Virus record (IMG/VR): IMGVR_UViG_3300008262_000044
DNA length: 20,000 nt
From: an uncultured virus (IMG/VR IMGVR_UViG_3300008262_000044)
Lineage: Duplodnaviria; Heunggongvirae; Uroviricota; Caudoviricetes
Strand: one strand, 5' to 3'
The position numbers and the translations under genes were made by a program. Shown piece by piece: positions 3,001-19,799 of this stretch (positions are counted from its first letter, which is position 1; each line of letters starts with the position of its first letter). The notes under the pieces are model-generated. The model was not told the origin of the DNA. It saw only the letters and a program-made list of their open reading frames with translations, and did not search any database.

Positions 3001-3970
3001 GAATATCACTACCCGGAATTTCGTATGTCGATGGATATCCTCTAGTTGTCGAAATGGCTTGCCATTTAGTAGGCTGCAATCCGTATTCAAAGTCAGCATC
3101 AAGCATGGCCTGCGGAGCAGCCATTCTTTGTCGCTCCATTGCATCAGTACCAAATTGATACGGTCTAGTTCTTAATTCGTTTTCATCAACAAAAATTTGA
3201 ATAGAATCTGTAGATGCATGTGTACTGGTATTGTAATATAAAGTTAATTGTGTATAACCCTGTGCCCATTCTAACAATCTCGGAAATATGTCAGTTTCGT
3301 CTCGAATAAATTCTCTTACAGCACCTGCAGTAGGGTCACTAAAATCATATATAATTTCGTTTTTAGTTGTATTGGTAATTAAAAGAATTTGATTTTGTTC
3401 ATATTTTTTAGGAAATTTAAGTCTACCAACTCCGGTAACTTCTGTTGGCAAGGCACCTAATCCATTTTCAATTACATTGGTTAAAATTCCAACAAGCTCG
3501 GTTACTCTCGCGGTAGTTCCATTCTCAGTTATTTTTCCGGGAATAATAGCCTGCGATACCACTGCCTGATACGATGGTGCTGCGGTATTAGTAAGAATAT
3601 ATGTGTTAATTATACCTCTTAAAAATATATGTGTTTGAATTTCTACCTGTCTATCGCCGTCAATTTGCGGAACATCATTTACCCAATATTTAGAAGATAC
3701 ACGACGAGTTTCTTCATTTCCGCCATATCTTAAATCAAACAAATATGCATCGATGATATATCCTACATCCCTTTCACATTTTTCAGAATTAAAAACATAC
3801 CCAACAAATGGAGCAATGTTTGCAGTAACCTGTGCATTGATGTATGCCGTTGCTTCCTTTTTTAAATAAGTTTTATTTGCAAGAAGCAAATCATATGCAT
3901 TTGGTCTTGCATTACTAAGATACGAAAGACCTGGTTTAAAACTGTATTCTCTAAGTTGAATTTTTGCCAT
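2..3970 (-). CDS. Large mosaic virion structural / receptor-binding protein (>1323 aa, 3' end beyond window); paralog of the 2471-aa protein; contains a LamG/ConA-like domain
   Basis: Not in the ORF track because its stop lies outside the window. Hand translation from ATG at 3970 (11 nt after the upstream TAA) gives MAKIQLREYSFKPG... open to position 2 (...ILDERVFRVR). Shares LLITNxTKNxIxxxFxD, DxDFEYGLQxTKW, AEGTFxV, HRPFDGGV and KYxRYQSGKG with the 2471-aa protein. Confidence 0.9.
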   Translation of the reverse strand, partial: MAKIQLREYSFKPGLSYLSNARPNAYDLLLANKTYLKKEATAYINAQVTANIAPFVGYVFNSEKCERDVGYIIDAYLFDLRYGGNEETRRVSSKYWVNDVPQIDGDRQVEIQTHIFLRGIINTYILTNTAAPSYQAVVSQAIIPGKITENGTTARVTELVGILTNVIENGLGALPTEVTGVGRLKFPKKYEQNQILLITNTTKNEIIYDFSDPTAGAVREFIRDETDIFPRLLEWAQGYTQLTLYYNTSTHASTDSIQIFVDENELRTRPYQFGTDAMERQRMAAPQAMLDADFEYGLQPTKWQAISTTRGYPSTYEIPGSDILVVSVTTDASSTTNSIGPSIITVNCVSPHFLTAGTPISIKALASSVTGFSRAEGTFLVNTTPTATSFTYFSKSRVGSISGEVLSTSYTQLRVSGFYTGANIGGPTFSVASQGNSGSFITNLDYVAGENTLAFTGTAPQVGDPLTSNSAQFQATSSATTIFASSLVSGRIAVGQRLTGGSLPVGTRITEQQYGGNNDFVVQRTATGTSGQSTIVVNSAAQIVIGQLISGNNTTIAGLQPGTFVNNIAGTTITLSKALTGNINTTVSFYTPGGIGAYTTSVSTSLVISTLVNASAYNVGTQVSAIRGSGGVVVTAFATQNVEVGATSFTLLDANGVLPGHLINNGSNRAMEVSSVGGNTVSFLSGRTTRLVGSDASYTNLAGTSIASDGAGAISRFTVNAQNQYEFATAIYEGENYVQNDLCKISGDTLEVYASTRFLSRFNIPEGRTAQDSIDFENLYNGTTPSTSGVGLSYSQKKFGRTSAQTARIVGGMIQYAASNDYNTFGNFSFETFIYIQTISGSGANYIVDRRNTSTDNTWWIYVDGTTGNLVFGNSLNSITITGTTDVRTLLNQWIHIAVNRLSDEIKLWLNGVQEGPTANDTTNYQGNTQLTLGGTFDISSTSGINAFFDETRLRNVSTYSDPFTPTSNPFPADAVGATPANDITFRVATITSGGGILSASNITGTLPAGQSFSTGFIARGTAVVQTPIGNGASFNVNRVSGSYTGITLSQSGTGYLVGNLIRIPENLLDGEGNQSRNLILSVTQIAAGGGIISVSTISGTARSTGDPVQFLSSIDISDGLSGPLLNGTTTTYSAIAKILVTFPSGHGLTPGSSISVAIGSGGSNHALASGPFFVEDVPTKNTLRYTVRSAGLIGTSPGITGLIYPRTDAFFLHRPFDGGVLLSTGTPSHGAQAVRMSKKYIRYQSGKGAMYTTGALFAPSYDIRGIVADGTAVNSLITITIDDNDHGLQIKSDVRISGAITVGYNGDYEVVEILDERVFRVR
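1058..1585 (-). other. LamG / concanavalin A-like lectin domain within the left giant protein
   Basis: Translation KKFGRTSA...GNFSFETFIYIQT...NQWIHIAVNRLSDEIKLWLNGVQ...FFDETRLRNVSTYSDPFTP matches the Laminin_G_3-type pattern (FTxExW, WxHxAxxR, LYxNG, IDExRI, YxxxFTP). Boundaries approximate. Confidence 0.75.
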
Positions 3971-3981
3971 ATTTTTTCTCT

Positions 3982-5049
3982 TTAACCACCTAATGCAATT
4001 GCTAATGCAGTTGCTTTTCTATTTGCATAAACTTTTGTTGCCACTAGCGTATTAGTTTCTGGTGCAGTTGTTTGTGTTGTACCATCATTAAATACAATTT
4101 CTGATACATAACCAGCCTTAAATCTATAACTTGGATTACCTAACGCATATTGATTATTTACTGCCGGTACTAACACATATCTTCTATCATTATCTAATAC
4201 ATTTGTGGTTGTTAAAACTAATTGACCTGCTCCTTTAGCAAATGCATCAGTTGAAATGACTAAAGAAGTTTGTCCAGTTACTGAGGTTCCATTATAACCA
4301 GATTGTCTCATGTTAATTCCGCCGCTGGCATCAAATGCAACATCAGTTTCAAAACCAGCAGATGGTTTAATTTTTCCACTAGATGTCTTTGTTAAAATAT
4401 TAGTTTCAATGTCAACACCGCCACTACCTATCCATATTTTATTAAATCTGTTAGTATTAGAACCAATTTGTAGTGTGTTGTTTGTAAAAGATAAAATATT
4501 ACCTTTATTTGTTTGATCGTAATTTAATCTAATAGGACTGTTTATTTCTAATGTTGTAGAATCTGATGCGCCAATTTGATTATTTTGAAAATAAAATCCT
4601 TCAATGCTAACTCGTTGATCGGCGTTAATAACAATCGATCCAGATTCTGTTATTTGTACAAGTCCACTACCTGATGAATTTTGAAGTTTAATTGATGTAG
4701 CATTAACTGTACTATGTAATAAAAAGTCGGTGCCGTCAAAACTTAAACTACCTGCATTTTGACTACTTGAATTTTTAAATTCAATTTTTTCGTTGCTTCT
4801 TACATCTAAATTTCCAACCAACGACGTAACTGCCGTAATTGTACCCAAGGTTACATTAGTTGTTGCACCACCAAGATTTGAAAGATCTGACCGTAATAAC
4901 TCAAAACCTCCACGAGTTTCGCCGTCGTATAATCTTAAAGTTTTTGAATCATAGTCATAGGTAATTTCGCCGCGAAATCCTTCCCTAAAAGTTTTTAAAC
5001 TAACAGGAAGTAATCTTAATCGAGCAGCAAGTATCTCACGTGTTGGCAT
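3982..5049 (-). CDS. Tail-fibre-like protein, 355 aa, with Mtd_N-like N-terminal motif and -ALAIALGG C-terminus
   Basis: ORF track. SD-like AAGGTGG upstream of ATG. N-terminal GFRGEITYDYDSKTLRLYDGETRGGFELLRSDLSN resembles the major-tropism-determinant N-terminal motif. Fibre motifs YALGNPSYRF and IVFNDGTTQTTA. Confidence 0.8.
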   Translation of the reverse strand: MPTREILAARLRLLPVSLKTFREGFRGEITYDYDSKTLRLYDGETRGGFELLRSDLSNLGGATTNVTLGTITAVTSLVGNLDVRSNEKIEFKNSSSQNAGSLSFDGTDFLLHSTVNATSIKLQNSSGSGLVQITESGSIVINADQRVSIEGFYFQNNQIGASDSTTLEINSPIRLNYDQTNKGNILSFTNNTLQIGSNTNRFNKIWIGSGGVDIETNILTKTSSGKIKPSAGFETDVAFDASGGINMRQSGYNGTSVTGQTSLVISTDAFAKGAGQLVLTTTNVLDNDRRYVLVPAVNNQYALGNPSYRFKAGYVSEIVFNDGTTQTTAPETNTLVATKVYANRKATALAIALGG

Positions 5050-5067: not shown

Positions 5068-5074
5068 TATTTAT
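5068..5074 (-). promoter_or_regulatory. Putative late promoter ATAAATA (T4 late-like)
   Basis: GATAAATA on the minus strand, 18 nt before ATG at 5049 and just downstream of the terminator. T4 late consensus is TATAAATA. Confidence 0.65.
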
Positions 5075-5123: not shown

Positions 5124-8100
5124 TTAGGCCTGTGATTCTTTCCAAGTAATTCGCGCAGTAACTGATGTAACTGCCGAAGTATCTGTTGGAACCATACAAA
5201 CACTTAACACATCAGGACCGTTCGGGAATACATAGTCACCACCAAGTACAGAATTTCCTAGATCAACTAGTTCATTCAAATCTTGAACTGTGACGTTTCC
5301 AGCAGTTGATGCAGTTGCACGGAATTCATAAATTGTAACTCCGCCCACAATACTATCAGTTGCTTGTCCAGTATGTTTAATCACTTGAGTTAATGACGGT
5401 GTACCAAAGTTAGCAAAATATGCCTGTTGTGATAATGCACCGTTTAGAATCAATCTTACTGAAGCAGGTCTACTATTGGTATTTTGTACAACAATACCTA
5501 CCTGTTGTAATGTAATACTCATACGGTTGATAATATCTCGATCACCCAATGCGCCTACAATACTGCTGTCAACACTTGGTGCTAGACGTAGACTTAAAAT
5601 TGGAGTAATAGTTGTACCACTAGTGTTTGCAGGAATGCTAATAGTATCGCTACCACCAGAACCTGTTGCAAGAGTAAACAAGTATGCCTTATCATCTTCA
5701 AATGTTCCATCCATAATTACCGAAGCACCCCAGTGATATAAGCTTGGTGCGTAAGTTGGTGCAGCACCATTCTTAATCTCGTAACGAGCAGGTAAATTAC
5801 CAGATCTCATATATGCTTCTACTTCTCTATTATTATGAATAAACTCATGAACATAAATTACTTTTCCGTCCGGACCTTTAAATCCAAAACGTACTTTACC
5901 TGCACCGTACCATGAATAATCAATGTAGGCCATTTGCATACGATTAACGTCAAGTACAAAACCGCTAGGTCCAGTACCATCGCATTTATCAAGACTCCAA
6001 CTACTTTGATTAACCTTGGTATCAACAACTTTGGTAATAACTGCTCCAGATACTGTCACTCCTCTGTATCTTGGTGTAACATGTAATTCAGTGTTACTGA
6101 CTACAACTACTACTTTCATAGTCTGTCCTCTAATTACAATAACATCACCGGCTGCTAACTGCTTAGTGAAATTAGTATCGGAACCTGTGACTAATCTACC
6201 TCTATTATTAATTGCAGCAGTTCCTCCAAGTTGTCCAGTTGCACTTCTACGTACACAACCTAACGCTTGTCCGTTATATTCGTAGAATAGACCGTTCTGA
6301 TCATCAAACATACCAGCACGAACTAGAGCATCCGACCATTCAGTTACAAACAGATTTGGAAATCCGCCCGGTGTAAGATCACCAGGAACACCGTTTGTAG
6401 CATAACGGAAAGTGAAATCATCAACTACATCAAATACTGTAAAATATCCAAGTCCGCCTGCTGGAGTTGTATACGGAGTTGCTGATCCAGAACCAACAAC
6501 AACCTGTTCAATTTTGATTCTATTAGTTGCAACTAATTTATGCGGTCTACGTGTTTTAACTGTTGCATAAGTTGTACCGTCGTGTGTGATACGATTTACG
6601 TCAATACTTGGACTAAAGTTAACACCTGTAGAATATTGTAGCCCTTTACCAGATTGATAGCGGAAATACTTGCGTGTCTGACGTACAATACTTACGTTTG
6701 GACTAGTTGATGCATTAATCTCAACACCGCCATCAAATGGTCTATGTACATTAGTACAATCTGGACGTACATATAATTCAGTTTCCTGAATAATTGGTAA
6801 TGCTAATAACACACCGTTTCTAACGTTACTTCCCTGTTGACCAGTAAAGAATATCGTACCTGTTGGTGCATTAGTTGTCAGTGCACCAGTATTGTCATAT
6901 CTAATATAGCTAGAACCTAGTACTGTTGATGCAATCAAGTAATGTTGGAAACCAGTACCACGAGTTGTAATATCAACTGGTATCATTCTCAATGCATTAT
7001 CTTCGTTGGTTGCTAATTGAATGATATCCTTGGTTTTTCTAATTACATAATAGGAAGTACCATCAGTTAATCCAGCCATTACAGTACCACTGTTAGGTAA
7101 ACCAAAGGTATAAACCACTTTTGTACCAGTATATAAATTATGGTCTGGTAGATAAATTTCATCAGTGTCAAGATTAACAACATCAATTTGCAAGCTAGCC
7201 ACACCAACAAAACTGCCCTGTGGATTAAATTGAATTTGTCTAGCAGTAAACGGATCAGTTACAATCATTTCTTGATCGTTTACTACAGACAATACATTCA
7301 TTTCATAGGTTACGTTTTCAATAACTGCAAATCTATGAGCAGCGTTACCTGTTGGAGCTACTGCTGTAATATTTACTGCTGTTTGTGTAGCAACTGCGCC
7401 ACCACCACTACCGCCTTCGATAGCTTCAGCGTAGGTGTTGTGCAGAGTAATATTATTAGCGTCTTGTCTGTTAACATAGTAAATTCTATTAGCTACTAAT
7501 CCGCCAATTGGTGTTTGATACGAAGTAGCGCCAGCAGTGTTAATTACTTGACTTTGAGTACCAACAGCTGGAGTTGTTCCTGCATGATTTCCGCCAATTG
7601 CATCAATTTCATAACGCACTGCGTCACCTGTTAATAATCTGTGAGCGGTGATTGTAATTGTATCATTGGCAACACTTGGTGCAGTGTTTGCGTTAAAATA
7701 AATTGTACGTTTTGGAATTTGATTACTTACCTTAACAGTATTGCCGCCTCTATAACTTACTAGGAATCTAGTACTGTATGATGGTAATGTAGGCACTCTT
7801 AACCAACTTAAATTATCCAAGTTAGTGGTTAGTGATACAGGAACTTGGCTGGCGCCAGTGTTGGCACTAGTCAAACTCATAAAGTATGTGTTGTTATATA
7901 AAACAACGTCACCGTATACATAAGTATCACTGGCGTTCCACTCGCCTCTATAAATTGTTCCTCTTAGAGTCGGATTCGATACTTTAAACTGGTGAACAGT
8001 TCCCAATCCTACACCAACAAGATCAACTAAGTCTGTATTGGTATACGCACCAACCCAAGTGTTGTGTAGAGAGAAGTTGTTGGCCGCTGATGCGCCACCA

Positions 8101-11100
8101 CCGCCCCTAGGTGCACCAGATGCAGTATTATTAACAAAATACTGGCGTCCATCAACCAGACCGTTAATTACACGACCACCGGCCCATACTCTATAAATTA
8201 CTCTGTCACCAGTTACTAAACCGTGTGAAGTAAAATTAATACGATCCGATGAAGCTAACACTGTAGCTGCTGAGCTACCGTTAACAATTAAATCTCTGGC
8301 TACAATTGTTGCTAGTCCACCCGATAAGCTTTCGCCAAATACCTGATCTGTAGTAAATGTATGGGCTCCGGCACTTCCTAAACTTGCAAATCTAGTAATA
8401 GCAATTCCTGCCAATGCATTTGCTTTGGTAGTTGCTAATTGGAAACTGTCTAAACCGGTTCTAATTACATAATATGCAGTATTATTGATTAGACTATTAT
8501 AAGTGTTGTTACCTGTTGGAGGAACTGTACCTTCACCAATAGCGTTGGCTAATGCTCCTTTTGAGTAGGTTACTTTGGTACCAGTATTAAATCCATGATT
8601 TGTAATTTGGAATTCACCGGTTTCCATTTGTAGATAATCTGCAGGTTCAAAGTAGAATATTCTATTTGAAACTGTAGTACCTATCGGTAAAGCAATAGTA
8701 TTATTTCCAACGCTGGTAGCAGTATAACCGCCATCTAAAGTTCCAGTAGACGATACATCTTCAAAAGTATGGTCAATAGCACTGCTGGCTAAACCTTGGA
8801 TAGGAACAGCATTATAGAAATGTATAAATGTCCAGTTAGTACCTGCAGTTGTAATATCAATTGGGAATCCTGCATAAGCCAATGCCGGTGTCAATGCTAA
8901 TCCAAATGTATTCGCATTAAAGATAATTGCAAAATAAACTACACCGTTACCTGCGCTAACACCTGTAGCAACACCGCCTGTGGTTGCAGCAACAGTTACA
9001 GTTTCACCTGCTTTTAAGTTATGAGTAGTAACAGTCCACCAATCGTTGGTAGCATCACCGGCACCGGCTGTAAGTTGTCTACTACGTCCAGCTTCTGTTT
9101 CAAATAGTTGGAAACTTCCGTATAGTTTTTCAACTAATGCTCCTTCTACAATAGCAGCAGCAGTTGTTGCTCGTTGTGCTCTGGTAACTGTTAGTGTAGT
9201 ACCTGAAATGTTAGTAATTAAAATAAACTCGGTACCTACTTTAATAGTGTCACCTATTGCTAATCCAGTGTTGGTAGTAATTGTCAAACTAGTTGCAACA
9301 GCAGTTGCAGCACTTAATGTTCCAGATATATTCCATAGAATAGTATTATTAACATTTCTAACAATATATTGTGTGTTGTTAACAAGACCAGGGTATCCAG
9401 ACAGGCCGCTACCTAAATCAAGTCCGCCGTTATTTTTATAACGAATAACAGCACCATCAACAAACACCTGATCTTGAATAGGTACTACAAATCTGTTGGC
9501 GTAAATGTTTTGAACAAATGGTGCAGTAAATGCCATTGGTGTACAAGCATTAGTTGTTTGAACAATTCCGCTTAACTGTACTGTTGGGTTACCTGTTGGT
9601 AACGCAGCCGATAACAGATGAACCTTAAAGATATCATTGGTGATTGGAACCATGTAGTACTGACTACCGCTGGTCAATCCAGGAATAACCTGTGTAGGCT
9701 GTGTTAGATATGTACGAATTCTTGGCCAGTTAGCACCAGTTGCATCAGTTACTGTGTCAAATAGTGGACCAGGATAATCTGGGCCAGTAGGATATACACC
9801 CTGTGATGCAATTCCTGTAACTAAATCAGTGGATCCTGAAAGATTTCCAACACGTTGATTTGTCTGTACTCCGCCGTGATTTGCTAGGAAGAAGCTGTTG
9901 CTAAATGGATTTTCATCAATTGCGCAGCAGAAAAATCTTCCGCCACCCGTAACACCTGTGCCACCGACACCAGAGGTAATTGTACCGCCACTAAAGTCAA
10001 CTGGTGAGCCTGTAGGAGTTAAGCTAATAGAAAATTCTACAACACCGTCACCAGTCCATACATTTCTTACATAGTAATATTGAAAAGCACCAAAAGTATT
10101 GGCACTGGTAGTCACACCAGTTGGCGCAGATGAACCAGTACCTAATTTTAGAATAATTTTTTGTCCTTCGTAGATATTTGCTGGCACAGTTTGATATTGA
10201 GAGATAACACGATCACGTGCTGCTCCGCTTCCACCTGTTGCTGTTGCAGTAAATGTGTTTACAGTAAATCCTGGCTGAATACACATAAAACCGCCTGCAA
10301 TTGTGGTCAATGCACTAAAGTCAAGTTTACTACCAGAAGTTGCACTGGCGTAAGGTCCTGTTGCTACTGAAACGTTTTCACCCCAAAATAGTTCAAATGA
10401 GTCAGCGTCTACTCTATTGACAAAATAGATTGCATCACCTGTAGGAACGTTAGTTCCACCACTATTGGCTTGCCCATAGTTTTGAAAAATTACTGGCTCA
10501 CCAGTTTCTAAACCGTGATTTTTAATGTAGATTGCATCGCTATTGGCAGTAATACCGCAGTGTTGCAGAGTAAACCATTTACCAGTTTTAGATCTCCAAT
10601 CGTCAATAGACGCACGATGTCTATTCCAAAGCGGATCTTCATGTAGTTGTGCTCTAATACCGAATCCTGTTACAGCATCATATCTGTTAAAACTGGTTGT
10701 ACCATTGCCACCAGAATTTAATACAGTGTAAACTTGACTGGCAGTTGCATTGATATCAACACCAGCTGCATTGGTTGGTCCCTGCATTCTAAAAGTAGTG
10801 CCATTTCTATCAAAACTGGTAGAGATAACTCTAAATACACCGTTTAATGCTGCAACATCTGCCCCGCTAACTGTAATTTGCTGTTTAGGAAAAATATTAA
10901 GTCCTTGACATGTATTTCCAGCTGTTAATGTAACAATATAAACTGAAGTTGCATTAACTGATTCAATAGAAGCAATATTAGGAATTACATCAGTACCGCG
11001 TCTAAACAATGCAAATGTATGAGTACCTGATCCAATACCGTTAAAAACTAATTGACTTGTATCGGCATATGCATCTTTTGGGTTCATGTATAACTTGAAA

Positions 11101-12539
11101 GTATCTGGTCCTGTTACATTAACAAACATAAATTTGCCCAATGTAGCACTTACCGCAGTACCGTATTGTGGTATTTGACCACCAGCATAGTTGAACCATG
11201 TAGATGCATTAGCATTGACCTGAGGCAACACTCCAGCTGGGCTAACACCAACATAAGCCACCATGTCTCCAGTTACTAGACCGTGTTTAGCCATAGTAAT
11301 TACGCCTGTTGAAATGTTAATATCAAGCTGAGTAATATTTCTTCTGATTGAACCGGTGTGGAATGGCTCAGTTGGATTAAAATAGCCAGTTCCGTAACTG
11401 GTTGCTGTATATGATACCGCACTACCGTTGGTATTTGATTGACTGATTGTATACGTACCAGTACCGCCTACTCCAGTACCGAATGCAGTAATGATACAGC
11501 CCGGAGTAAATGTTCCACCAGTAATAACAGATCCAATAGTTAACACTCCACTGGTCAATACTGTAACGGTCAGTGTTGTTGTACTAGTAGTGGCTGTAAA
11601 CACAGCGTTTGTTCCTGCTAAAGTTATACGATCGTCAACTTCGCCTGTTCCTGTAGTTAAAGAAACTGGATTAAAATCTAATTTTAAATTAGCAAGACTG
11701 TTTACCAAATAGAATGTACTGTTTGCTGGAAAGCCATGTCTTTGTTCAGTGTAGGCTGTTAAGGTACTAGGATTAGAACCGTTAGTAACTAACATACCTG
11801 TGGTGTTTGCAACAGAATTATCTAAATCTACTTGCGATCCTACATAGAATCTACCCAATGTAATTGTTACATATGGAGTAAAAATACTAGCCGGAACGGC
11901 AACATTACCTGGTTGAACAGCACGAGCTTCGTAAGTGAATGTTAAATCTGTAGTTCTTTTAACTACAAATGTACCTTCAGCAGACGGAGAACCTACTCCT
12001 CTTACATCAATAGGAATACCAGTAACAATACCGTGTGCAACACTGGTTGTTACTGTTACAATTCTTGTACCACTGGTTGTGATGCCAACAATGTTTGTTA
12101 ACGGAGTATCACCTAAAATGCTATGGAACGCTGGAACTTCATTCATGCGCTCTACGGTTTCCCACTTGGTAGATTGCAAACCGTATTCAAAGTCCGTATC
12201 AATAAGTGTGTTTGGTTGTGAAACACGCATCTTAGATACAGGATCTGTAAATGTCGGGCTTGGTTCTATTTCGTTGAAATCTTGTTCAATGAAAATCTGT
12301 AGATTATCACCAGCAAGCATTGCTGCACAATCGTATTGTAAAACAAACGTAGTTGTATCGTTTGCAGTACTATAAGTTGCACTGATAATTTTCTTTGTAG
12401 TATCAGCAAAGTTAAACAAAATAATGTTTTTTGTAACGTTTGTGATTAACAACACCCTTTTAGGTGAAACGTTACCATCGACCGTGATAGAATCTGATCC
12501 CGGTGTAAATGTATAATTGAAAACTAGTGTCTTAGCCAT
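5124..12539 (-). CDS. Giant (2471 aa) mosaic virion structural / fibre-associated protein with many HxLxTGxxVxY repeat modules
   Basis: ORF track. AAGGA SD upstream. G/T/N/V-rich beta-type composition. Repeated HG(L/F)xTG(D/E/T)xVxY...YYV...FxL modules, one CBM5/12-like module and a C-terminal core (RYQSGKG...GMFDDQNG...DGTGPSG...IDYSWYGAG...YMRSGNLPARYEI...WKE). Confidence 0.9.
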   Translation of the reverse strand: MAKTLVFNYTFTPGSDSITVDGNVSPKRVLLITNVTKNIILFNFADTTKKIISATYSTANDTTTFVLQYDCAAMLAGDNLQIFIEQDFNEIEPSPTFTDPVSKMRVSQPNTLIDTDFEYGLQSTKWETVERMNEVPAFHSILGDTPLTNIVGITTSGTRIVTVTTSVAHGIVTGIPIDVRGVGSPSAEGTFVVKRTTDLTFTYEARAVQPGNVAVPASIFTPYVTITLGRFYVGSQVDLDNSVANTTGMLVTNGSNPSTLTAYTEQRHGFPANSTFYLVNSLANLKLDFNPVSLTTGTGEVDDRITLAGTNAVFTATTSTTTLTVTVLTSGVLTIGSVITGGTFTPGCIITAFGTGVGGTGTYTISQSNTNGSAVSYTATSYGTGYFNPTEPFHTGSIRRNITQLDINISTGVITMAKHGLVTGDMVAYVGVSPAGVLPQVNANASTWFNYAGGQIPQYGTAVSATLGKFMFVNVTGPDTFKLYMNPKDAYADTSQLVFNGIGSGTHTFALFRRGTDVIPNIASIESVNATSVYIVTLTAGNTCQGLNIFPKQQITVSGADVAALNGVFRVISTSFDRNGTTFRMQGPTNAAGVDINATASQVYTVLNSGGNGTTSFNRYDAVTGFGIRAQLHEDPLWNRHRASIDDWRSKTGKWFTLQHCGITANSDAIYIKNHGLETGEPVIFQNYGQANSGGTNVPTGDAIYFVNRVDADSFELFWGENVSVATGPYASATSGSKLDFSALTTIAGGFMCIQPGFTVNTFTATATGGSGAARDRVISQYQTVPANIYEGQKIILKLGTGSSAPTGVTTSANTFGAFQYYYVRNVWTGDGVVEFSISLTPTGSPVDFSGGTITSGVGGTGVTGGGRFFCCAIDENPFSNSFFLANHGGVQTNQRVGNLSGSTDLVTGIASQGVYPTGPDYPGPLFDTVTDATGANWPRIRTYLTQPTQVIPGLTSGSQYYMVPITNDIFKVHLLSAALPTGNPTVQLSGIVQTTNACTPMAFTAPFVQNIYANRFVVPIQDQVFVDGAVIRYKNNGGLDLGSGLSGYPGLVNNTQYIVRNVNNTILWNISGTLSAATAVATSLTITTNTGLAIGDTIKVGTEFILITNISGTTLTVTRAQRATTAAAIVEGALVEKLYGSFQLFETEAGRSRQLTAGAGDATNDWWTVTTHNLKAGETVTVAATTGGVATGVSAGNGVVYFAIIFNANTFGLALTPALAYAGFPIDITTAGTNWTFIHFYNAVPIQGLASSAIDHTFEDVSSTGTLDGGYTATSVGNNTIALPIGTTVSNRIFYFEPADYLQMETGEFQITNHGFNTGTKVTYSKGALANAIGEGTVPPTGNNTYNSLINNTAYYVIRTGLDSFQLATTKANALAGIAITRFASLGSAGAHTFTTDQVFGESLSGGLATIVARDLIVNGSSAATVLASSDRINFTSHGLVTGDRVIYRVWAGGRVINGLVDGRQYFVNNTASGAPRGGGGASAANNFSLHNTWVGAYTNTDLVDLVGVGLGTVHQFKVSNPTLRGTIYRGEWNASDTYVYGDVVLYNNTYFMSLTSANTGASQVPVSLTTNLDNLSWLRVPTLPSYSTRFLVSYRGGNTVKVSNQIPKRTIYFNANTAPSVANDTITITAHRLLTGDAVRYEIDAIGGNHAGTTPAVGTQSQVINTAGATSYQTPIGGLVANRIYYVNRQDANNITLHNTYAEAIEGGSGGGAVATQTAVNITAVAPTGNAAHRFAVIENVTYEMNVLSVVNDQEMIVTDPFTARQIQFNPQGSFVGVASLQIDVVNLDTDEIYLPDHNLYTGTKVVYTFGLPNSGTVMAGLTDGTSYYVIRKTKDIIQLATNEDNALRMIPVDITTRGTGFQHYLIASTVLGSSYIRYDNTGALTTNAPTGTIFFTGQQGSNVRNGVLLALPIIQETELYVRPDCTNVHRPFDGGVEINASTSPNVSIVRQTRKYFRYQSGKGLQYSTGVNFSPSIDVNRITHDGTTYATVKTRRPHKLVATNRIKIEQVVVGSGSATPYTTPAGGLGYFTVFDVVDDFTFRYATNGVPGDLTPGGFPNLFVTEWSDALVRAGMFDDQNGLFYEYNGQALGCVRRSATGQLGGTAAINNRGRLVTGSDTNFTKQLAAGDVIVIRGQTMKVVVVVSNTELHVTPRYRGVTVSGAVITKVVDTKVNQSSWSLDKCDGTGPSGFVLDVNRMQMAYIDYSWYGAGKVRFGFKGPDGKVIYVHEFIHNNREVEAYMRSGNLPARYEIKNGAAPTYAPSLYHWGASVIMDGTFEDDKAYLFTLATGSGGSDTISIPANTSGTTITPILSLRLAPSVDSSIVGALGDRDIINRMSITLQQVGIVVQNTNSRPASVRLILNGALSQQAYFANFGTPSLTQVIKHTGQATDSIVGGVTIYEFRATASTAGNVTVQDLNELVDLGNSVLGGDYVFPNGPDVLSVCMVPTDTSAVTSVTARITWKESQA

Positions 12540-12558: not shown

Positions 12559-12565
12559 TATTTAT
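12559..12565 (-). promoter_or_regulatory. Putative late promoter ATAAATA overlapping the upstream stop codon
   Basis: GGA TAA ATA on the minus strand, 19 nt before ATG at 12539. Confidence 0.55.
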
Positions 12566-15500
12566 CCGCCTAACGCAATGGCGTAAGCGATCGAGTTAAC
12601 GTTTGTTTGCGTATTGTTTGTATCAACATACGATTTAACTGCTGCCTCTGTTGGAACTGCTGAATTTGAATTTCCGCTTAGTGTGGTGTCTGATGAAAAT
12701 TCGTTAACCAATTCACCTAACTGAGCTCCAATACTACCTAATCTTAAACTGGTCAAACCGCTTAGATCGAATGCACTTGCATTTAACGTTGCTTTACCAG
12801 TTGCTTGATCGACTTTAAAGTATTCACCAACTCTGAAATTACCATCTTGGTCTGTTGTAACATAATAAACACGACCCGGATATGTTTCAATAACTTCATT
12901 TACTTGTGATGCTGCTTGTGAAGGAACACCTGGGTAATTAGTAGTACTAATGCCACCGGTACCAACACTTAAAAAGTCGTGACCTGTTAGTCTGACTGTA
13001 CTAAATCTGTATCTTAGAGTAACTGCGGTAGTATCTGCGCTTGCTGTTAATTTTTCTGTTGTTAAAATTACCAACGCATAACCTGCAGGTTTATAACCAC
13101 TACCACCTGCTGAATAATCAGCAACCGTTTGAATAATATATGGTTGAGAATCGCCGGCAATTGTAATACTGCCACCTGGTCTAGGTTCAGAACTAAATCC
13201 AGATAATGCTAATACAAATCCTTTCTGTCCTGTTACACCGCCGGTGGCAATAACTGCGCTTACTCCAGAACCATTTGAAACAGTTTCGCCTGCTTGGAAT
13301 GTATTAGATACTGCTTTATAATAAATTCTGCTAACACCCTCTTGCGAACTCAATACCGTTCCAGTGGCTCCTGATACACTACCAGTAATTGTCTGCCCTG
13401 GACTAAACGAACCGCCAACGATACTTTGATATGTAATTAGTCCGCCATGCAATACACCAGTCACCGGAGTTTCAAATGTATCAAATCCTTCTGATGCTGA
13501 TCCATAAGTTCCGTAACTATTATTACCGTTTAATGCACGAATTTGACCACCGTCTGATGAAGCATATCCAAACACACAATAATAAGTGAACACAGAAACT
13601 AGTTCTGCTTTAGCTGCATGTCTGGTCCAGACTCCAACACCCCCATCGTTGATACATGTAAAGTTACTTAGGACCATTGATTTATTGCCGGTATTATGAA
13701 CTCCGCCGTCAATTAACGCACCAATGCCTGCGGTAGAAAATGTAGTAACATCCTGAATATATGGACTCTTAGTAGTTACAGGACTGTCAGGATTTAGTGC
13801 AAAGAATACACCGCCTCTAGTCGCTGCTTCAATACTAGTTGGTGTTCCGCCACTTATTGCAAACCCGTTCATGCCTGTACAATTTAGATCTTTTACCATC
13901 GAAGCATTACTCATTAAGAACATAGTTGTTCTACTGTTCAATGTTGATCCGTCTGTACTAGTTCCTGCGGCTGCTGTTACAGTAGTAGTTCTTACACCGT
14001 CGCCAACGATTGAAACGCTAGCCGGTACTACAATAGGTAGTTGTTCTGTATAAGTTCCGCTCTTAACATAAATTGTTGCGGGTCCAGTGACTTGTGTGCA
14101 GGCATATCTAATAGATGCAAATGCACGATTCAGTGTTCTGCCGTTATTACTATTACTACCTTCGGGAGTGACATAATAGACATTTGCTGTTTGATTATTA
14201 TTTTCGTATCCAGGAATTCCAGCTGCACTGGCTACCAAAATTTGACCATTAGTACCAATTGGTAATCTTGCTACTGAGCCAGCCGAGTTTCTAAAATAAG
14301 TATCGCCCGTGGTTGTTAAAACAGGACCTAAGTCACCTGTTTGAGCAACTAGCTGCCACGAACCGGGCGACGAAACTGGATCGTTTCCAATATTATCACT
14401 AACAATAGAAATATACGAACTCTGTAAGTATGAAACAACATCATCTAAATCATATTCAGTGCCGGCACTCCAAGTGCCCATCCATTTCATACCAGAACTT
14501 AATAGTTCCCAGTATGTAGCATTTGGTGGTTCAATATTGGTTGCGTTATCTGATGTGTGCGCTAGGATACAAAGATAAACACGACCACCGTATCTAACAG
14601 CTTCGCCTGGTTTGTAAGCTGTAGCGTTTGCGTAATTTCCCACAAACGATAAACCGTCGACAAATTTTGTCCAATATGTGGCATTTGTCGGAACTTGGTT
14701 TGTTGCTGTTAAAATATTAACATATACATGTCCGCCGTATTTTACTAAATCTCCTGGAACATACGGATGTGCTGGAGCTCCTGTCCATATTCCTCTAAAC
14801 TGGAATCCTTTGGCAAATAAATCCCATTTGGTATTATCTGATGGTTCTTGATTAATTGCTACATCAACTTTGGCTGCATAGATACTACCACCATAATCAA
14901 CTAATTCACCTGGTTTATAAGTACCGGCAGTACTGTAAGTACCAACGTAAGTATAACCTTTAACTAGTACATCCCAATAGGTTGCATTAGTTGGAAGATT
15001 TCCTGTAGTGGTTTGTTTTGCAATATATTGGTATCCGCCGTATTGAACAACTTCCCCAATATTATAAGTTGTTCCGCCGGCATAAGTGCCGCTAAATTTA
15101 GAGCCAGTATTAAGCGTATCCCAGAAAGTTGCATTACTTGGAGCATTGCCTGTGGTATCTTGTTTGGCAACGAACGTATGTGCTCCAAAACTAACAATAT
15201 CACCTTTTCTATATGCAGTCCCTCCTGCGTAAGCACCTCTAAATTGAACACCGGTTGTGATTGCAGTCCAGTATACTGGATCAGTTGGCAAATTCCCTAA
15301 TGTGGTCTGTACTGCTACATATGAGTTTGAACCGTATGTTACAACGTCACCTGGTTGATATGAAGTGCCTCCAGCATATGCTCCTTCAAATTGTAGACCA
15401 GACGCAAATAATGTGAACTTAGCTACATCAAATGTTGATGTACTAGTGTGATGTAAATTACAGATGTATAACTGTCCGCCATAACTAACAACATCGTTAA

Positions 15501-15906
15501 CTTTATATCTTACAGCAGAAGACCATGCACCGCCAAATGCAATACCGTCTACTAAAACTTCCCAGTTGGCAGAGTTTTGTTCTAGTCCCAGTGCAGCGGT
15601 AGCAGCAGAAGTGTGACCAGTAATACAAATATAAGCGCGGCCTCCGTACTTGACTACGTCGGCAACTTTATAATATGTACTGGTCGCCCACGCTTGTGCC
15701 CACTGAATACCGTCATTCATTAACTGCCATCTAGTGGATAAATCGCTATAAAAGCCCCCTGCTACGGTTGCAGATGATGTGTGACTTGATACGCACACAT
15801 AAGCCTTGCCACCATATCTTACAATATCGTCTTTAACATATGCAGTAGATGTTGTCCATGTATTCTTCCATACAAAACGCAATCTACCTAATTTAAACTC
15901 TGCCAT
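12562..15906 (-). CDS. Tail fibre / tailspike-like protein, 1114 aa: ten CBM5/12(ChtBD3)-like repeats, fibre linker, pectin-lyase-like beta-helix, -AYAIALGG C-terminus
   Basis: ORF track. GAGGA SD. Repeats of FxGx(W/Y)xxxxxYxxxDxVxYGGxxYx(C/A)...W. Linker LTTTGDTYFR...RLPIGTNGQIL. NVYYVTPEGSNSNNGRTLNRAFASIRYAC...TIYVKSGTYTEQLPIVVPASVSIVGDG is a typical start of a right-handed beta-helix. Confidence 0.85.
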   Translation of the reverse strand: MAEFKLGRLRFVWKNTWTTSTAYVKDDIVRYGGKAYVCVSSHTSSATVAGGFYSDLSTRWQLMNDGIQWAQAWATSTYYKVADVVKYGGRAYICITGHTSAATAALGLEQNSANWEVLVDGIAFGGAWSSAVRYKVNDVVSYGGQLYICNLHHTSTSTFDVAKFTLFASGLQFEGAYAGGTSYQPGDVVTYGSNSYVAVQTTLGNLPTDPVYWTAITTGVQFRGAYAGGTAYRKGDIVSFGAHTFVAKQDTTGNAPSNATFWDTLNTGSKFSGTYAGGTTYNIGEVVQYGGYQYIAKQTTTGNLPTNATYWDVLVKGYTYVGTYSTAGTYKPGELVDYGGSIYAAKVDVAINQEPSDNTKWDLFAKGFQFRGIWTGAPAHPYVPGDLVKYGGHVYVNILTATNQVPTNATYWTKFVDGLSFVGNYANATAYKPGEAVRYGGRVYLCILAHTSDNATNIEPPNATYWELLSSGMKWMGTWSAGTEYDLDDVVSYLQSSYISIVSDNIGNDPVSSPGSWQLVAQTGDLGPVLTTTGDTYFRNSAGSVARLPIGTNGQILVASAAGIPGYENNNQTANVYYVTPEGSNSNNGRTLNRAFASIRYACTQVTGPATIYVKSGTYTEQLPIVVPASVSIVGDGVRTTTVTAAAGTSTDGSTLNSRTTMFLMSNASMVKDLNCTGMNGFAISGGTPTSIEAATRGGVFFALNPDSPVTTKSPYIQDVTTFSTAGIGALIDGGVHNTGNKSMVLSNFTCINDGGVGVWTRHAAKAELVSVFTYYCVFGYASSDGGQIRALNGNNSYGTYGSASEGFDTFETPVTGVLHGGLITYQSIVGGSFSPGQTITGSVSGATGTVLSSQEGVSRIYYKAVSNTFQAGETVSNGSGVSAVIATGGVTGQKGFVLALSGFSSEPRPGGSITIAGDSQPYIIQTVADYSAGGSGYKPAGYALVILTTEKLTASADTTAVTLRYRFSTVRLTGHDFLSVGTGGISTTNYPGVPSQAASQVNEVIETYPGRVYYVTTDQDGNFRVGEYFKVDQATGKATLNASAFDLSGLTSLRLGSIGAQLGELVNEFSSDTTLSGNSNSAVPTEAAVKSYVDTNNTQTNVNSIAYAIALGG
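14335..15906 (-). repeat. Ten tandem protein-level repeats (most 49-55 aa), CBM5/12-like
   Basis: Ten units counted in residues 1-524, each ending near W/F-x5-G, e.g. LQFEGAYAGGTSYQPGDVVTYGSNSYVA...YWTAITTG and VQFRGAYAGGTAYRKGDIVSFGAHTFVA...FWDTLNTG. Divergent at DNA level. Confidence 0.85.
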
Positions 15907-15927: not shown

Positions 15928-15934
15928 TATTTAT
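15928..15934 (-). promoter_or_regulatory. Putative late promoter ATAAATA overlapping the upstream stop codon
   Basis: CAA TAA ATA on the minus strand, 21 nt before ATG at 15906. Confidence 0.55.
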
Positions 15935-16650: not shown

Positions 16651-18162
16651 TTATCCTAGTTGTATAACTTTCTCAATTGCAACGTCAATTGCTGTTTGTT
16701 CAGTAATAGCACCCTGAGCGCCGGATGGATTTTGCCATTGTAAACCGTTCCAAACTTCAACAACTTGAGTATCGGTGTTAAAACGAGTCATACCAACTAC
16801 TGCATATGCTGTTGGCCTTTCTAAGTTAGTACCAACTGGTAATACAAATCCGTTGGTGCCTTGAAATTTAAAATATCCATTTCCTGTTGGCTGTAATAAA
16901 CTTACTGCATCATTTACAGTGTTTGTAATAGTATTGTTATTAAATGCAAAATTTGCTAATCTAACTGCGCCAGTACCGTTGGCCTCAATAGTGAAATTTT
17001 CATTAGTTACAGTTGTTGTAATTAAATTACCTTGAATACTAATATTACCGACAGTTAACGAATTTTTAATGTCAAATCTAGTTGTATTCATATCCGCAAC
17101 TAACGAACCATTTGCATAAAATCTAATAGTATTGTCATTTGCACCCGGTGTTAGTTCTGCTGTAATTTTAGTATTACCGTCGGCATCTTCTACGCCCGAT
17201 AATCCATACCATGCTGATCCGTCATACCCTTCATATTTGCTAGTTTCCGTATTATATCTAATCATGCCCGGACTAGCGGGGAATGGTCTTTGAGCAATTG
17301 TTCCTTTTGGTAATGTAATTGCTTGAGTTGTATCAAATCTAACTACCCCAGATCCGTTAGGACGTATTAGTAAATCTTCGTTGTTGTCCCATGTAGAAAT
17401 TACATTTTCATTAATATCTATTTTTTCTAATCTTATAGCACCGGTACCGTTGGCTTTAAGTTCTAAATTAGCGTTTGAAGTAATTGTTCTAATAACATTA
17501 TCGAATATTTCAATATCAGATAGTAATATATTATTAGCATTAAGATTTTTCCATCTTAATTGCGGAGTTCCTAGCGTATAAGTATCCGTAGTTTCTGGTC
17601 TTAAATTGCTGGTAATACCTGCAACGATAGAAATGGTATCTGTTGCTTCATCACCAATTGTAATATTACCACCAATATTAATATTACCGTCTGCTGTAAT
17701 ATTTCCTGTTGTATATAAATTACCATATACATTAGCATCAGAAAATACTTCAACTTTACCAGTACCATTTGGTCTAAACTGTAAATTTGAATTTGAAACA
17801 GCAGTTGAAATTTGATTATTTTGAATTACTAGATCATCAACTTGAATCTTAGATTGATAAACAGTAAAGTCATTGTTAGCAGGTAACAACGATAAAGTGT
17901 TTGTAGTTGAACTTAAATTGTTGCCATTGAAAATTAGATTAGCTATTCTTGATTCGTTAACAACTTCTAAATCTATGGTACGTGTAGTACCTGCAACATC
18001 TAAATCGTATTGAGGATTATTCGTGTTGATGCCCACTCTTGGAGTTGCATTAGTGGGTGATGCCACTTTTAAGAATAATAGATCGGTCTCAAAAGCCAGA
18101 TCTACTCCGTTACGAAGCAAATTTGCCTTTAAGAGCGGACCGGAAATACGACCAACAGCCAT
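16651..18162 (-). CDS. Tail-fibre-like structural protein, 503 aa; paralog of the 497-aa protein
   Basis: ORF track. GAGGAG SD. Internal IxxNxIxT..SNxNLxxxxNGTGxV repeats. Two LPxGTxxxRP...GMxR(Y/F)NT...E..G..W motifs. Confidence 0.88.
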   Translation of the reverse strand: MAVGRISGPLLKANLLRNGVDLAFETDLLFLKVASPTNATPRVGINTNNPQYDLDVAGTTRTIDLEVVNESRIANLIFNGNNLSSTTNTLSLLPANNDFTVYQSKIQVDDLVIQNNQISTAVSNSNLQFRPNGTGKVEVFSDANVYGNLYTTGNITADGNINIGGNITIGDEATDTISIVAGITSNLRPETTDTYTLGTPQLRWKNLNANNILLSDIEIFDNVIRTITSNANLELKANGTGAIRLEKIDINENVISTWDNNEDLLIRPNGSGVVRFDTTQAITLPKGTIAQRPFPASPGMIRYNTETSKYEGYDGSAWYGLSGVEDADGNTKITAELTPGANDNTIRFYANGSLVADMNTTRFDIKNSLTVGNISIQGNLITTTVTNENFTIEANGTGAVRLANFAFNNNTITNTVNDAVSLLQPTGNGYFKFQGTNGFVLPVGTNLERPTAYAVVGMTRFNTDTQVVEVWNGLQWQNPSGAQGAITEQTAIDVAIEKVIQLG

Positions 18163-18262
18163 TAGCTCTCCTCAATACCCCGTGTTTCACGGTTAACCAC
18201 CTTACATTGCGGGTTTACCACAGTTTGATTACACAAGCATTTGGTCTACGCTTGTACTAGTT
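18163..18262 (-). promoter_or_regulatory. Candidate structured 5' leader RNA of the 503-aa gene
   Basis: 100 nt between ATAAATA and ATG, richer in G+C than the other spacers. Contains hairpins TACAAGCGT-AGACCAA-ATGCTTGTG (18256-18232) and CCGTG-AAA-CACGG (18192-18180). Confidence 0.5.
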
Positions 18263-18269
18263 TATTTAT
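18263..18269 (-). promoter_or_regulatory. Putative late promoter ATAAATA
   Basis: AATAAATA in intergenic DNA 12 nt after the stop of the 497-aa gene. Confidence 0.6.
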
Positions 18270-18281
18270 TCAAAATTGGAT

Positions 18282-19775
18282 TTAACCAAAGATGATGGTG
18301 TAAAGATCAATGATTTCTTCAAGTTGAGTTTGAGTAACAGTCGAACTTGGTCCAATTATAAGAGCATACTCGGTTCCGTTGAATACTTCTAAATTACCGG
18401 TGTCGGTATTTAAACGGAAGTCGCCAGTTTGAGTACCCGGTGGGGCTGTTGTAATAGTTGGACCGTTGGGAATAGCTAGCGCATTGGTTCCAGCAATTTT
18501 AAAATACCCTCGGCCTACAGTATTTAAAAGTATGTTTTGATTGGTGCTGAAAATTGTGTCGCCGCTAAATTTAAATTGTTCAACACTTAAATCTCCAGTA
18601 CCTTGCGCTTCGATCCTAATATCACCGTTAAGTACTGATGTACTGATTTTACTAACTGTTGATTCAATCGACAGTGTGTCATTTACAGAAATTTTGGTTG
18701 CATTGATTTTTGTTTGATCGATTGTGGTTTTTATTGCTCCACTAATTTGAAATTTAATAACATTACTGTTAACAGATTTTATGTCATCAATGTAGACTCG
18801 TGTGTTTCCGTCAAGATCAGAAACTTGAGTAAATCCCACAACTGTTCCACCAAACCCTTCAAAATTATTTTTTGTAGAATTAAATCTAAACTCTCCGTCA
18901 TTCAGTGATGATCGATCTCCAGTAGTGCCTACAGGTACTAATATTGCGTTAGTTTTATCAAATACAACAGTTGGATTAAAAACTACAGTTGTTCCAACAT
19001 TATTCGAAATTACATTATTGGTGAATCGTATTTGTTCTGCTAAAACGCCGCCGGTCGCACTACCAGATAATTCTAAGTTAGAATTAGAGATAGTAGTTTT
19101 AATAGTGTTGGCTTCAATTCTAATATTTTCTAAATCTATATAATCTGAAAGATATGCTGTTCGCCATCTAAAATTTGGAATTCCTAAAGAATAAGTTCCT
19201 GTAGTAGATGGATTTAAGTTTTGTGAAAATACCGGATTAATTGCTACAGTATCATTAGGATCCGCACCAATAGCAATTTGGCCGCCTATAGATACATCTC
19301 CGTCAACTAATATATTACCAGATAGATATAGATTTCCGTTAATATCCAATTGCTGATAAAAATTAACATCGCCAGTTCCGGATGGATCTAGATTAATATT
19401 AACGTTACTATTTTTTGAGCCAATGACATTACCATCAAAATATAGATCATCTGTTTCATTTCGATCTATAAGGATAACACCATTTTGTCCCCCGGCCGCT
19501 TGCAGATATAACGGTCCGTTGATTGTTTTTAATTGATCATTTTCAACAATAATGCCTTCTAATGTGGCACGAGGAGCAATTAATTCAACTGTACGAGTTT
19601 TACCATCTATTTGTAGAGTTCTACTGAAAGCATCGGTATTGATACCAATGCCTCCCGCACCGCTATTAAGACCTACGTCAAGATATAATAAGTCTGTATC
19701 AAAGGCGAGATCAACATCCTGTCTAAGCAGGTTGTCTGCAAGCATGGGGCCGGAAATTCTACCAATATCTGACAT
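18282..19775 (-). CDS. Tail-fibre-like structural protein, 497 aa; paralog of the 503-aa protein
   Basis: ORF track. AAGGAAG SD. N-terminus IGRISGPMLADNLLRQDVDLAFDTDLLYLDV aligns with VGRISGPLLKANLLRNGVDLAFETDLLFLKV and is collinear throughout. Confidence 0.88.
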   Translation of the reverse strand: MSDIGRISGPMLADNLLRQDVDLAFDTDLLYLDVGLNSGAGGIGINTDAFSRTLQIDGKTRTVELIAPRATLEGIIVENDQLKTINGPLYLQAAGGQNGVILIDRNETDDLYFDGNVIGSKNSNVNINLDPSGTGDVNFYQQLDINGNLYLSGNILVDGDVSIGGQIAIGADPNDTVAINPVFSQNLNPSTTGTYSLGIPNFRWRTAYLSDYIDLENIRIEANTIKTTISNSNLELSGSATGGVLAEQIRFTNNVISNNVGTTVVFNPTVVFDKTNAILVPVGTTGDRSSLNDGEFRFNSTKNNFEGFGGTVVGFTQVSDLDGNTRVYIDDIKSVNSNVIKFQISGAIKTTIDQTKINATKISVNDTLSIESTVSKISTSVLNGDIRIEAQGTGDLSVEQFKFSGDTIFSTNQNILLNTVGRGYFKIAGTNALAIPNGPTITTAPPGTQTGDFRLNTDTGNLEVFNGTEYALIIGPSSTVTQTQLEEIIDLYTIIFG

Positions 19776-19792
19776 GACTTCTTCCTTTTAAC

Positions 19793-19799
19793 TATTTAT
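19793..19799 (-). promoter_or_regulatory. Putative late promoter ATAAATA
   Basis: AATAAATA in intergenic DNA, 17 nt before ATG at 19775. Confidence 0.6.

Follow-up and report, generated by a model that had tools for sequence, protein, structure and literature searches.

Comparative sequence analysis identifies the leader of the 503-aa fibre-like gene as a real, strongly conserved and pseudoknotted folded RNA, present as a single copy in each of at least about 140 distinct contigs of uncultured T4-like phages. It is a new family of structured, pseudoknotted translational leaders, on an unusual target, a late fibre-like gene. Since the leader pairs with the first codons of this gene it probably sets the amount of protein made, and with moderate confidence we regard it as a cis-acting, pseudoknotted 5′ UTR of a late mRNA that controls translation of the fibre-like gene. 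The first-pass annotation of this DNA had proposed a translational operator or switch, which was a reasonable reading of the leader.

The window, that is the whole stretch of 20,000 nucleotides that was analysed, is part of a 40.8-kb IMG/VR viral record, and all of its genes lie on the minus strand. The leader sequence quoted in the first-pass annotation was located at 18163-18262 on the minus strand, immediately 5′ of the ATG (18162-18160) of the 503-aa gene, and covers the 100 nt from the end of an ATAAATA core up to this start codon. The upstream gene, of 497 aa, ends with a TAA at 18284-18282, leaving a stop-to-start gap of 119 nt (18163-18281), which is the longest of the window, the remaining gaps having 3-74 nt. 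No terminator-like site or U-tract was found in 18163-18281, in line with the earlier statement that the leader has no U-tract. An intrinsic terminator of the upstream gene was considered for this region and rejected, as P1 is followed by GUAAUCAAAC, with no U-tract, and lies downstream of the promoter core. The positions of the individual features are given in the table below.

Features of the fibre-gene leader and its surroundings (positions in the window; P, paired element)
Feature	Positions	Strand	Basis
Late-promoter core, T4-type ATAAATA	18263-18269	-	Family consensus (A/C)TAAATA; promoter role predicted from the T4 consensus TATAAATA (PMC3014915)
ATAAATA sites	5068-5074, 12559-12565, 15928-15934, 18263-18269, 19793-19799	-	Motif search of 20 kb
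P1, 9-bp 5′ hairpin (18256-18248 with 18240-18232), two G.U pairs, loop AGACCAA (18247-18241)	18232-18256	-	Folding; 9/9 pairs changed on both sides
P2 hairpin, UGUGG-UAAA-CC(X1)GCA, within invariant GUGGUAAACC; X1 = C at 18211	18208-18222	-	RNAalifold
Short linker AUGUAAG	18201-18207	-	Replaced elsewhere by 1-2 inserted hairpins, P3a/P3b
Y1 (G), long-range Watson-Crick partner of X1 (18211)	18200	-	Pair counts, 98 rows
3′ core: GGUUAA, P4 CCGUG-AAA-CACGG (18192-18180) and GGU	18177-18198	-	Pattern search with P4 free
Shine-Dalgarno GGAG	18168-18171	-	At least 90% conserved; 5-8 nt to ATG in the alignment
Codons 3-5, UUGGUC(G), 3′ strand of pseudoknot with P1 loop	18149-18155	-	Loop-codon complementarity and covariation
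Codons 8-11, GGU CCG CUC UUA, synonymous sites frozen	18130-18141	-	Complementary to SD region GGAGAGC
Regulated gene (predicted), 503-aa fibre-like virion protein, start MAVGRISGPLLK	16651-18162	-	phrog_6005 virion structural protein, E = 3e-36

The sequence AATAAATA at 18270-18263 matches the T4 late-promoter consensus TATAAATA at 7 of 8 positions (PMC3014915), and all 98 aligned leaders contain TAAATA unchanged. All five ATAAATA matches of the window lie in the short intervals that precede genes, always on the coding strand, and the distance from this core to the ATG is 18, 19, 21 and 17 nt at four genes, against 100 nt at the 503-aa gene, which agrees with the first-pass observation that this is the sole long leader among others of 17-21 nt. 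The cores precede the genes for 497, 503, 1114, 2471 and 355 aa, and none is present before those for 109, 124 and 1323 aa, a distribution that maps the late transcription units as 497 alone, 503-109-124, 1114 alone, 2471 alone and 355-1323. As no ATAAATA precedes the 109-aa and 124-aa genes, the 503, 109 and 124 genes plausibly form one late unit. That a structured leader stands before this unit, as had been suggested, is borne out by its conservation and by the presence of ATAAATA before the first of these three genes but not before the other two.

Folding recovered the 9-bp hairpin with two G.U pairs and an AGACCAA loop that had been described on first inspection (P1). Across the family P1 has 9-12 bp, is free in sequence with the pairing kept, usually carries the loop (N)GACCAA, and starts 1-3 nt past the predicted start of the late transcript. 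The invariant core consists of GUGGUAAACC ... GGUUAACCGUGAAACACGGGGU, and its 5′ half is unchanged across the 119 listed loci of a sample that was not selected for it. The linker between the two halves exists in 6 short variants (13 nt between the core halves) and 40 long ones (25-54 nt), the latter folding as one or two hairpins at one fixed site, many of them with GNRA loops and with stems that covary. Near the 3′ end the order in the family is Y1-N-GGUUAA, P4, GGU, 6-10 variable nt, GGAG and AUG, with about 14-15 nt from the end of the core to the ATG, GGAG included.

Pooled motif searches provided the at least about 140 contigs and 98 distinct leader sequences considered here, and this way of gathering members, through exact core motifs, biases the collection towards the structure. 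The 19-mer GGTTAACCGTGAAACACGG was found in at least 119 viral contigs; among the matches listed, 114 also have TAAATA and ATG in place, and the promoter-to-ATG distance is mostly 100-101 nt, with a maximum of 143 nt. A second pattern, in which P4 was left free, gave at least 119 loci, 4 of those listed being false. The gene that follows is of the M..GRISG/GRITG/GQISG type in 79 of 79 unique variants. A protein-based search retrieved seven contigs with close relatives of the gene (71-100% identity), and the leader is present in all seven, with the core nearly unchanged and P1 differing by compensatory changes; the comparison of leaders of homologous genes, which the first-pass annotation had put forward as a check, therefore returned a conserved leader with covariation. 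A covariance model built from the 98 leaders gave one strong match in the window (151.9 bits) and exactly one match in each of five large contigs. Compensatory helices are thus accompanied by a fixed position and orientation before one gene family, which is the generic pattern of a structured cis-regulatory RNA. The 19-mer core has no match in one genome each of 185,579 prokaryote species, and neither the 126-nt leader (blastn) nor a 3.8-kb segment (megablast) has a match among 50,697 GenBank phage records. From four RNA-library runs only one contig was obtained, of 151 nt, which maps to 17729-17879 within the 503-aa gene and off the leader; in one RNA-library run 9% of the sampled words were present.

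The evidence for the fold is comparative, as a lone sequence folds no better than chance (for 141 nt, z = 0.20, with 107 of 200 shuffles folding equally well; for 151 nt, z = -0.55). In an alignment of 99 rows (A3), which was fitted to the model structure and is hence biased towards it, and in which one row is only a weak promoter-plus-codon match at 19740-19798, 95.4% of the cells are paired, against 82.1% after column shuffling, a level of pairing reached in none of 500 shuffles, and 32-49% when the partners are slid. For covariation the score is 0.373, compared with 0.127, and double changes occur in 13 of 27 pairs; none of 500 shuffles reaches the score, although kinship among the sequences inflates such tests.

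Taken helix by helix, P1 is the most variable in sequence, with double changes in all nine pairs and 94.7% of its cells paired in A3. In P2, one base pair is U-A in 95 rows of A3 and A-U in 3, the U-G pair is UG in 92 of 98 rows and U-A in 6, and the upper two pairs never vary. The long-range pair X1-Y1 shows five pair types in 98 rows (CG 61, AU 25, GU 6, GC 2 and UA 1, with 3 other or unpaired). In the sample that was not selected for P4 (119 listed loci, 4 of them false), the consensus P4 is found 102 times and a compensatory C-G to G-C swap (CGGUG..CACCG) 5 times, together with one half-changed form (CAGUG..CACCG), five with a U.U mismatch and two in which the first loop base is changed. 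This swap backs the CCGUG/CACGG hairpin while the 5′ core stays constant, and the GGUAAACC/GGUUAACC pairing that had been proposed to compete with it is accordingly not supported. The CAAUG/UAUUG pairing, also proposed at first, fares no better, both partners lying in segments that are variable or missing in other members. The G.U pairs are frequent and valid on the mRNA strand only, which means that the structure is that of the transcript and not of duplex DNA; the strand specificity claimed for P1 thus extends to the family.

Within the limits of the search patterns, no member was found in which a C of AAACC or the first G of GGUUAA is replaced. Among searches with varied core patterns, one gave 8 matches, all with the consensus core, another gave none, and the loosest gave 120 random matches and no family member. 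Because most core positions are invariant, the upper pairs of P2 and three of the five pairs of P4 are neither supported nor contradicted by covariation, and for the same reason the GG-CC pairing within P2 given by RNAalifold is indistinguishable from an H-type pseudoknot of AACC-X1 with Y1-N-GGUU, which would place the X1-Y1 pair naturally. The minimum free energy (MFE) structure of the single 151-nt sequence, in which UAAGGUGG, ACCG, GAAA and ACGG are paired with codons 4-11, was rejected as a general structure, since long-form members do not contain UAAGGUGG and the P4 swap favours P4.

The P1 loop, GACCAA, is perfectly complementary to UUGGUC, which is formed by the end of codon 3 and by codons 4-5 (Gly-Arg). 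Among 79 distinct P1/codon combinations, both strings are present in 49, UUGGUC with a near-variant loop in 16, GACCAA alone in 1 and neither in 13, and 89.6% of the loop-codon cells of A3 are paired, the middle pair being AU in 76 rows, UA in 5 and GU in 5. The complementarity extends to 8-9 nt in some members (ACGACCAAU with AUUGGUCGU), and in members whose N-terminus has 1-3 additional residues the pairing site is displaced together with the Gly-Arg codons. In locus L061 the register is shifted with the preceding Ile codon AUC, so that UCGACC faces GGUCGA, and in L069 an Arg-to-Gln change is followed by the pairing (UGACCAA with UUGGUCA). A compensatory A-U to U-A change, with loop GUCCAA or GUCCAC and codons UUGGAC, is found in L241 and separately in L075/L169, whose P1 stems are unrelated and whose linkers are of different forms, making the two compensations independent. 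As the UGGUU of the core is unchanged in these three loci, the loop pairs with the codons, and not with the UGGU of the core as the first-pass annotation had allowed.

This pairing is not universal. In a sub-lineage comprising L062, L080, L101 and L131 (and L246), P1 forms a long, perfectly paired hairpin that lacks the GACCAA loop, and the codons read UUGGAAG and CAAAUGCUC; both pairings with the coding region are gone together, and the core is unchanged. Since 13 of 79 variants have neither string and retain an intact core, the lock formed with the codons is dispensable in part of the family and the core must fulfil an independent role.

A second contact with the coding region is suggested by codon usage. 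The choice of codons is nearly fixed up to codon 11 (GCU, GUU, GGU, AUU, GGU, CCG, CUC, UUA; CCG in 75 of 81, CUC in 86 of 94 and UUA in 81 of 100) and free from codon 12, and at a Leu four codons past the frozen block all six codons are used, with an entropy of 2.56 out of 2.58. The frozen GGU CCG CUC UUA complements the SD region, as GAGAGC with GCUCUU or as GGAGCG with CGCUCU, and over the first 150 nt of the gene the best duplex of the SD region is with the CCGCUCUU window (mean -9.5 kcal/mol), the other windows giving mostly -4 to -6.5 kcal/mol and the second best -7.7 to -7.9 kcal/mol. RNAalifold consensus folding gives no pairs for this helix, and in the single-sequence MFE structure of 151 nt the SD/codon pairing gives way to another partner, which is missing in long-form members. 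The codons vary too little for a covariation test, so for this contact we rely on complementarity and codon constraint, from which we infer that the SD region probably pairs with codons 9-11.

The RNA has no counterpart among known families. Rfam 15 gave no match at gathering score over the whole window, and a scan of 18000-18450 against 4227 Rfam families with E up to 10 gave only 4 chance matches, of 7.6-13.3 bits against thresholds of 40-80. With 20 diverse members and E up to 1, the one chance match lies outside the element and on the opposite strand. The novelty check against Rfam called for at the outset thus left the leader without a family. The core 15-mers do not occur in the searchable literature, where, of 54 papers that contain a core 10-mer, the 10 listed concern unrelated subjects, and a literature search by words found no description of a fibre-gene leader of such kind. 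A related resource is a catalogue of 8,495 candidate structured RNAs mined from intergenic regions of IMG/VR 3.0 through covariation (PMC10690425), which shares with the present work both the type of data and the type of evidence, and reports leaders upstream of the GP20 and GP32 genes. Its main text mentions no fibre or tail leader, the word 'tail' occurring 0 times, and its readable tables contain neither the core strings nor six contig number fields; the fibre-gene leader may already be among the unnamed entries of this catalogue.

From these elements a mechanism can be proposed. Late transcripts would begin just 5′ of P1 and carry the whole element, and the leader would fold compactly into P2, an optional P3 and P4, tied by one long-range Watson-Crick pair. 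The P1 loop would then close a large pseudoknot onto codons 3-5 and, if the SD is paired with codons 9-11, the ribosome-binding site would be enclosed and initiation braked. The unusual invariance of the core points to a specific partner, and a trans-acting factor may dock on the core and so determine the frequency with which the ribosome site opens, most likely a phage protein, for instance the fibre protein or a partner in its assembly. Unassembled fibre, or such a partner, would exert feedback of the kind seen with gp32, gp43 and ribosomal protein S15. Overall, this would tune the output of the second of two tandem fibre paralogs and of the two small genes downstream. Control of initiation by pseudoknots and by ribosome-site helices is established for T4 mRNAs (PMC3014915).

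One of the nearest analogues in function is the gene 32 leader of T4, T2 and RB69, likewise a 5′ leader of the T4 family with a pseudoknot upstream of the ribosome site and cis control of initiation (PMC3014915). Gene 32 encodes the ssDNA-binding protein, and in its leader a small H-type pseudoknot located 67 nt upstream nucleates cooperative binding of gp32, which covers an unstructured, A+U-rich ribosome site (PMC3014915). In contrast, the fibre leader precedes a late fibre-like gene, has a much larger fold and a ribosome site that is probably base-paired. It does not belong to the gene 32 operators, given the fibre-like virion gene downstream and the lack of sequence or model similarity. 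The E. coli rpsO operator, which responds to S15, is similar in that a hairpin loop pairs downstream to form a pseudoknot around the initiation region, with a hairpin-only conformer as the alternative and a bound form that represses translation (PMC3985624). The rpsO operator as described there is small, with S15 as effector, whereas the fibre leader pairs with codons 3-5 and has a large invariant core between the two strands; the ribosomal-leader models of Rfam do not match it.

Sequestration of the SD and/or start region in an intramolecular helix is also known for T4 genes e, soc, 49 and I-TevI, where the late promoter lies inside the structure and late transcripts, devoid of the 5′ arm, are translated (PMC3014915). 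In the fibre leader, on the contrary, the late promoter lies 5′ of the whole structure, and late transcripts would include all of the lock. Translational riboswitches of the pseudoknot type combine an invariant core, optional stems and covarying helices with a position next to the SD. The fibre leader resembles them in all four respects and differs in having no family match, with all Rfam 15 classes scanned, and in having a virion structural gene as target.

We therefore consider what kind of partner the core might have. A phage-protein operator ranks as most likely, followed by a small-molecule ligand as the main rival and then by a role in stability, processing or self-cleavage; a purely DNA-level role is unlikely. 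A more speculative version, to which we give a rather low probability, is that the core acts as a sensor, either a metabolite or signalling-nucleotide aptamer or a dock for a phage assembly protein, gating one of the two alternative fibre paralogs. If true, the T4 superfamily would have its first known regulatory RNA of the switch type, and jumbo T4-like phages would have a means of matching the receptor-binding composition of their virions to the condition of the host.

It is unlikely, though worth weighing, that the leader is a riboswitch proper, in which the invariant core would be a small-molecule aptamer whose ligand alters the equilibrium of an open ribosome site with the loop/codon and SD/codon pairings. 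An invariant core, optional hairpins, a lone long-range pair and adjacency to the SD are typical of aptamer domains. The leader presents each of these: about 35 nt are invariant while the proteins and the P1 stems diverge widely, the optional hairpins are confined to one fixed site, a lone long-range covarying pair is present, and the core stands immediately 5′ of the SD and stays intact even where the pairing with the coding region is lost. However, there is no likeness to 4227 Rfam families even with E up to 10, a structural fibre gene is an unusual target, and the search for a mutually exclusive terminator or anti-SD helix supported by covariation yielded no clear case. Moreover, according to the standard review, T4 has no characterised riboswitch or comparable regulatory RNA (PMC3014915).

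A slighter chance is given to an effect on mRNA stability or processing, with translation affected only indirectly: the fold would shield the transcript from RNases that depend on the 5′ end or hide GGAG from a RegB-like nuclease, or the core would be a self-cleaving ribozyme. T4 RegB cuts at GGAG, and GGAG is the SD in at least 90% of the members. RegB is a general regulator in T4 (PMC3014915). P1, moreover, starts within 1-3 nt of the predicted 5′ end, covariation maintains its stem through all changes of sequence, and an invariant core is compatible with a ribozyme. Yet a stabiliser could do without 60 nt of invariant core and without contacts to codons 3-5, the leader matches none of the known ribozyme families, and no read data point to a cleavage site. 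Conservation at the level of DNA, as a site for a late-transcription factor or a junction for recombinational exchange of fibre cassettes between related phages, is highly improbable: GGTTAACC is a perfect palindrome, the element lies at the boundary of two paralogous fibre genes, and contigs with flanking proteins of only 71% identity have the same core sequence, but the compensatory changes in four helices and two long-range pairings, the abundance of G.U pairs on the sense strand only, the hairpins of 12-40 nt inserted between the core halves, which would ruin a fixed DNA spacing, and the synonymous-site constraint that complements leader segments all speak against it.

Post-transcriptional control in T4-type phages has been described for a handful of early and middle genes, namely gene 32, gene 43, the RegA targets and genes with ribosome-site hairpins. 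Here, a large and nearly invariant pseudoknotted leader, on a late structural gene, is common to well over 100 uncultured aquatic T4-like phages. As an RNA of about 140 nt with precise predicted pairings (loop with codons 3-5, X1-Y1 and P4), it could shed light on the control of fibre stoichiometry or of the choice between fibres, and may offer structural biology a new RNA fold.

The carriers are uncultured T4-like phages with very large genomes and look like a jumbo T4-like lineage. Five large contigs that bear the element (G001-G005, from loci L005, L037, L029, L050 and L090) have 210-270 kb; with an estimated completeness of 60-71%, the full genomes would measure roughly 350-380 kb. The T4-type major capsid protein Gp23 is encoded by all five, and psbA is found in none of the five at this level of completeness.

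The 503-aa protein has no match in Pfam, NCBIfam or PDB, and has partial, weak relatives at 32-50% identity in cultured cyanomyoviruses, where they are annotated as virion structural proteins; the S-PM2 relative, p089, is encoded near the tail fiber gene p091. Its upstream neighbour, the 497-aa protein (18282-19775, minus strand), is a paralog whose N-terminus, MSDIGRISGPML, resembles that of the 503-aa protein. The two tandem paralogs have a common N-terminal motif, GRISGP.L...L.R..VDLAF, and differ in the remainder, and the long leader is found only on the second. All 4 related contigs examined show the order 172 aa, paralog, leader, 503, 109, 124 and fibre. For the 109-aa and 124-aa products, the predicted AlphaFold models have pLDDT values of 44 and 36, too poor to classify them.

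The large ORFs of the window match phage virion and tail-fibre families. The 355-aa protein (3982-5049, minus strand) has a weak match to the End_tail_spike endosialidase catalytic domain (E = 5.5e-4, 20.5 bits, below the cut-off of 25). Two giant virion proteins are encoded on the minus strand, one of 2471 aa (5124-12539) and one of more than 1323 aa (2-3970), the latter with a Laminin_G_3 (concanavalin-like lectin) domain at residues 820-954. The 1114-aa tail-fibre protein (12562-15906, minus strand) matches phrog_9851 (tail fiber) with E = 0 and contains five CBM_5_12 modules (Pfam E = 3e-47), which may be receptor-binding repeats.
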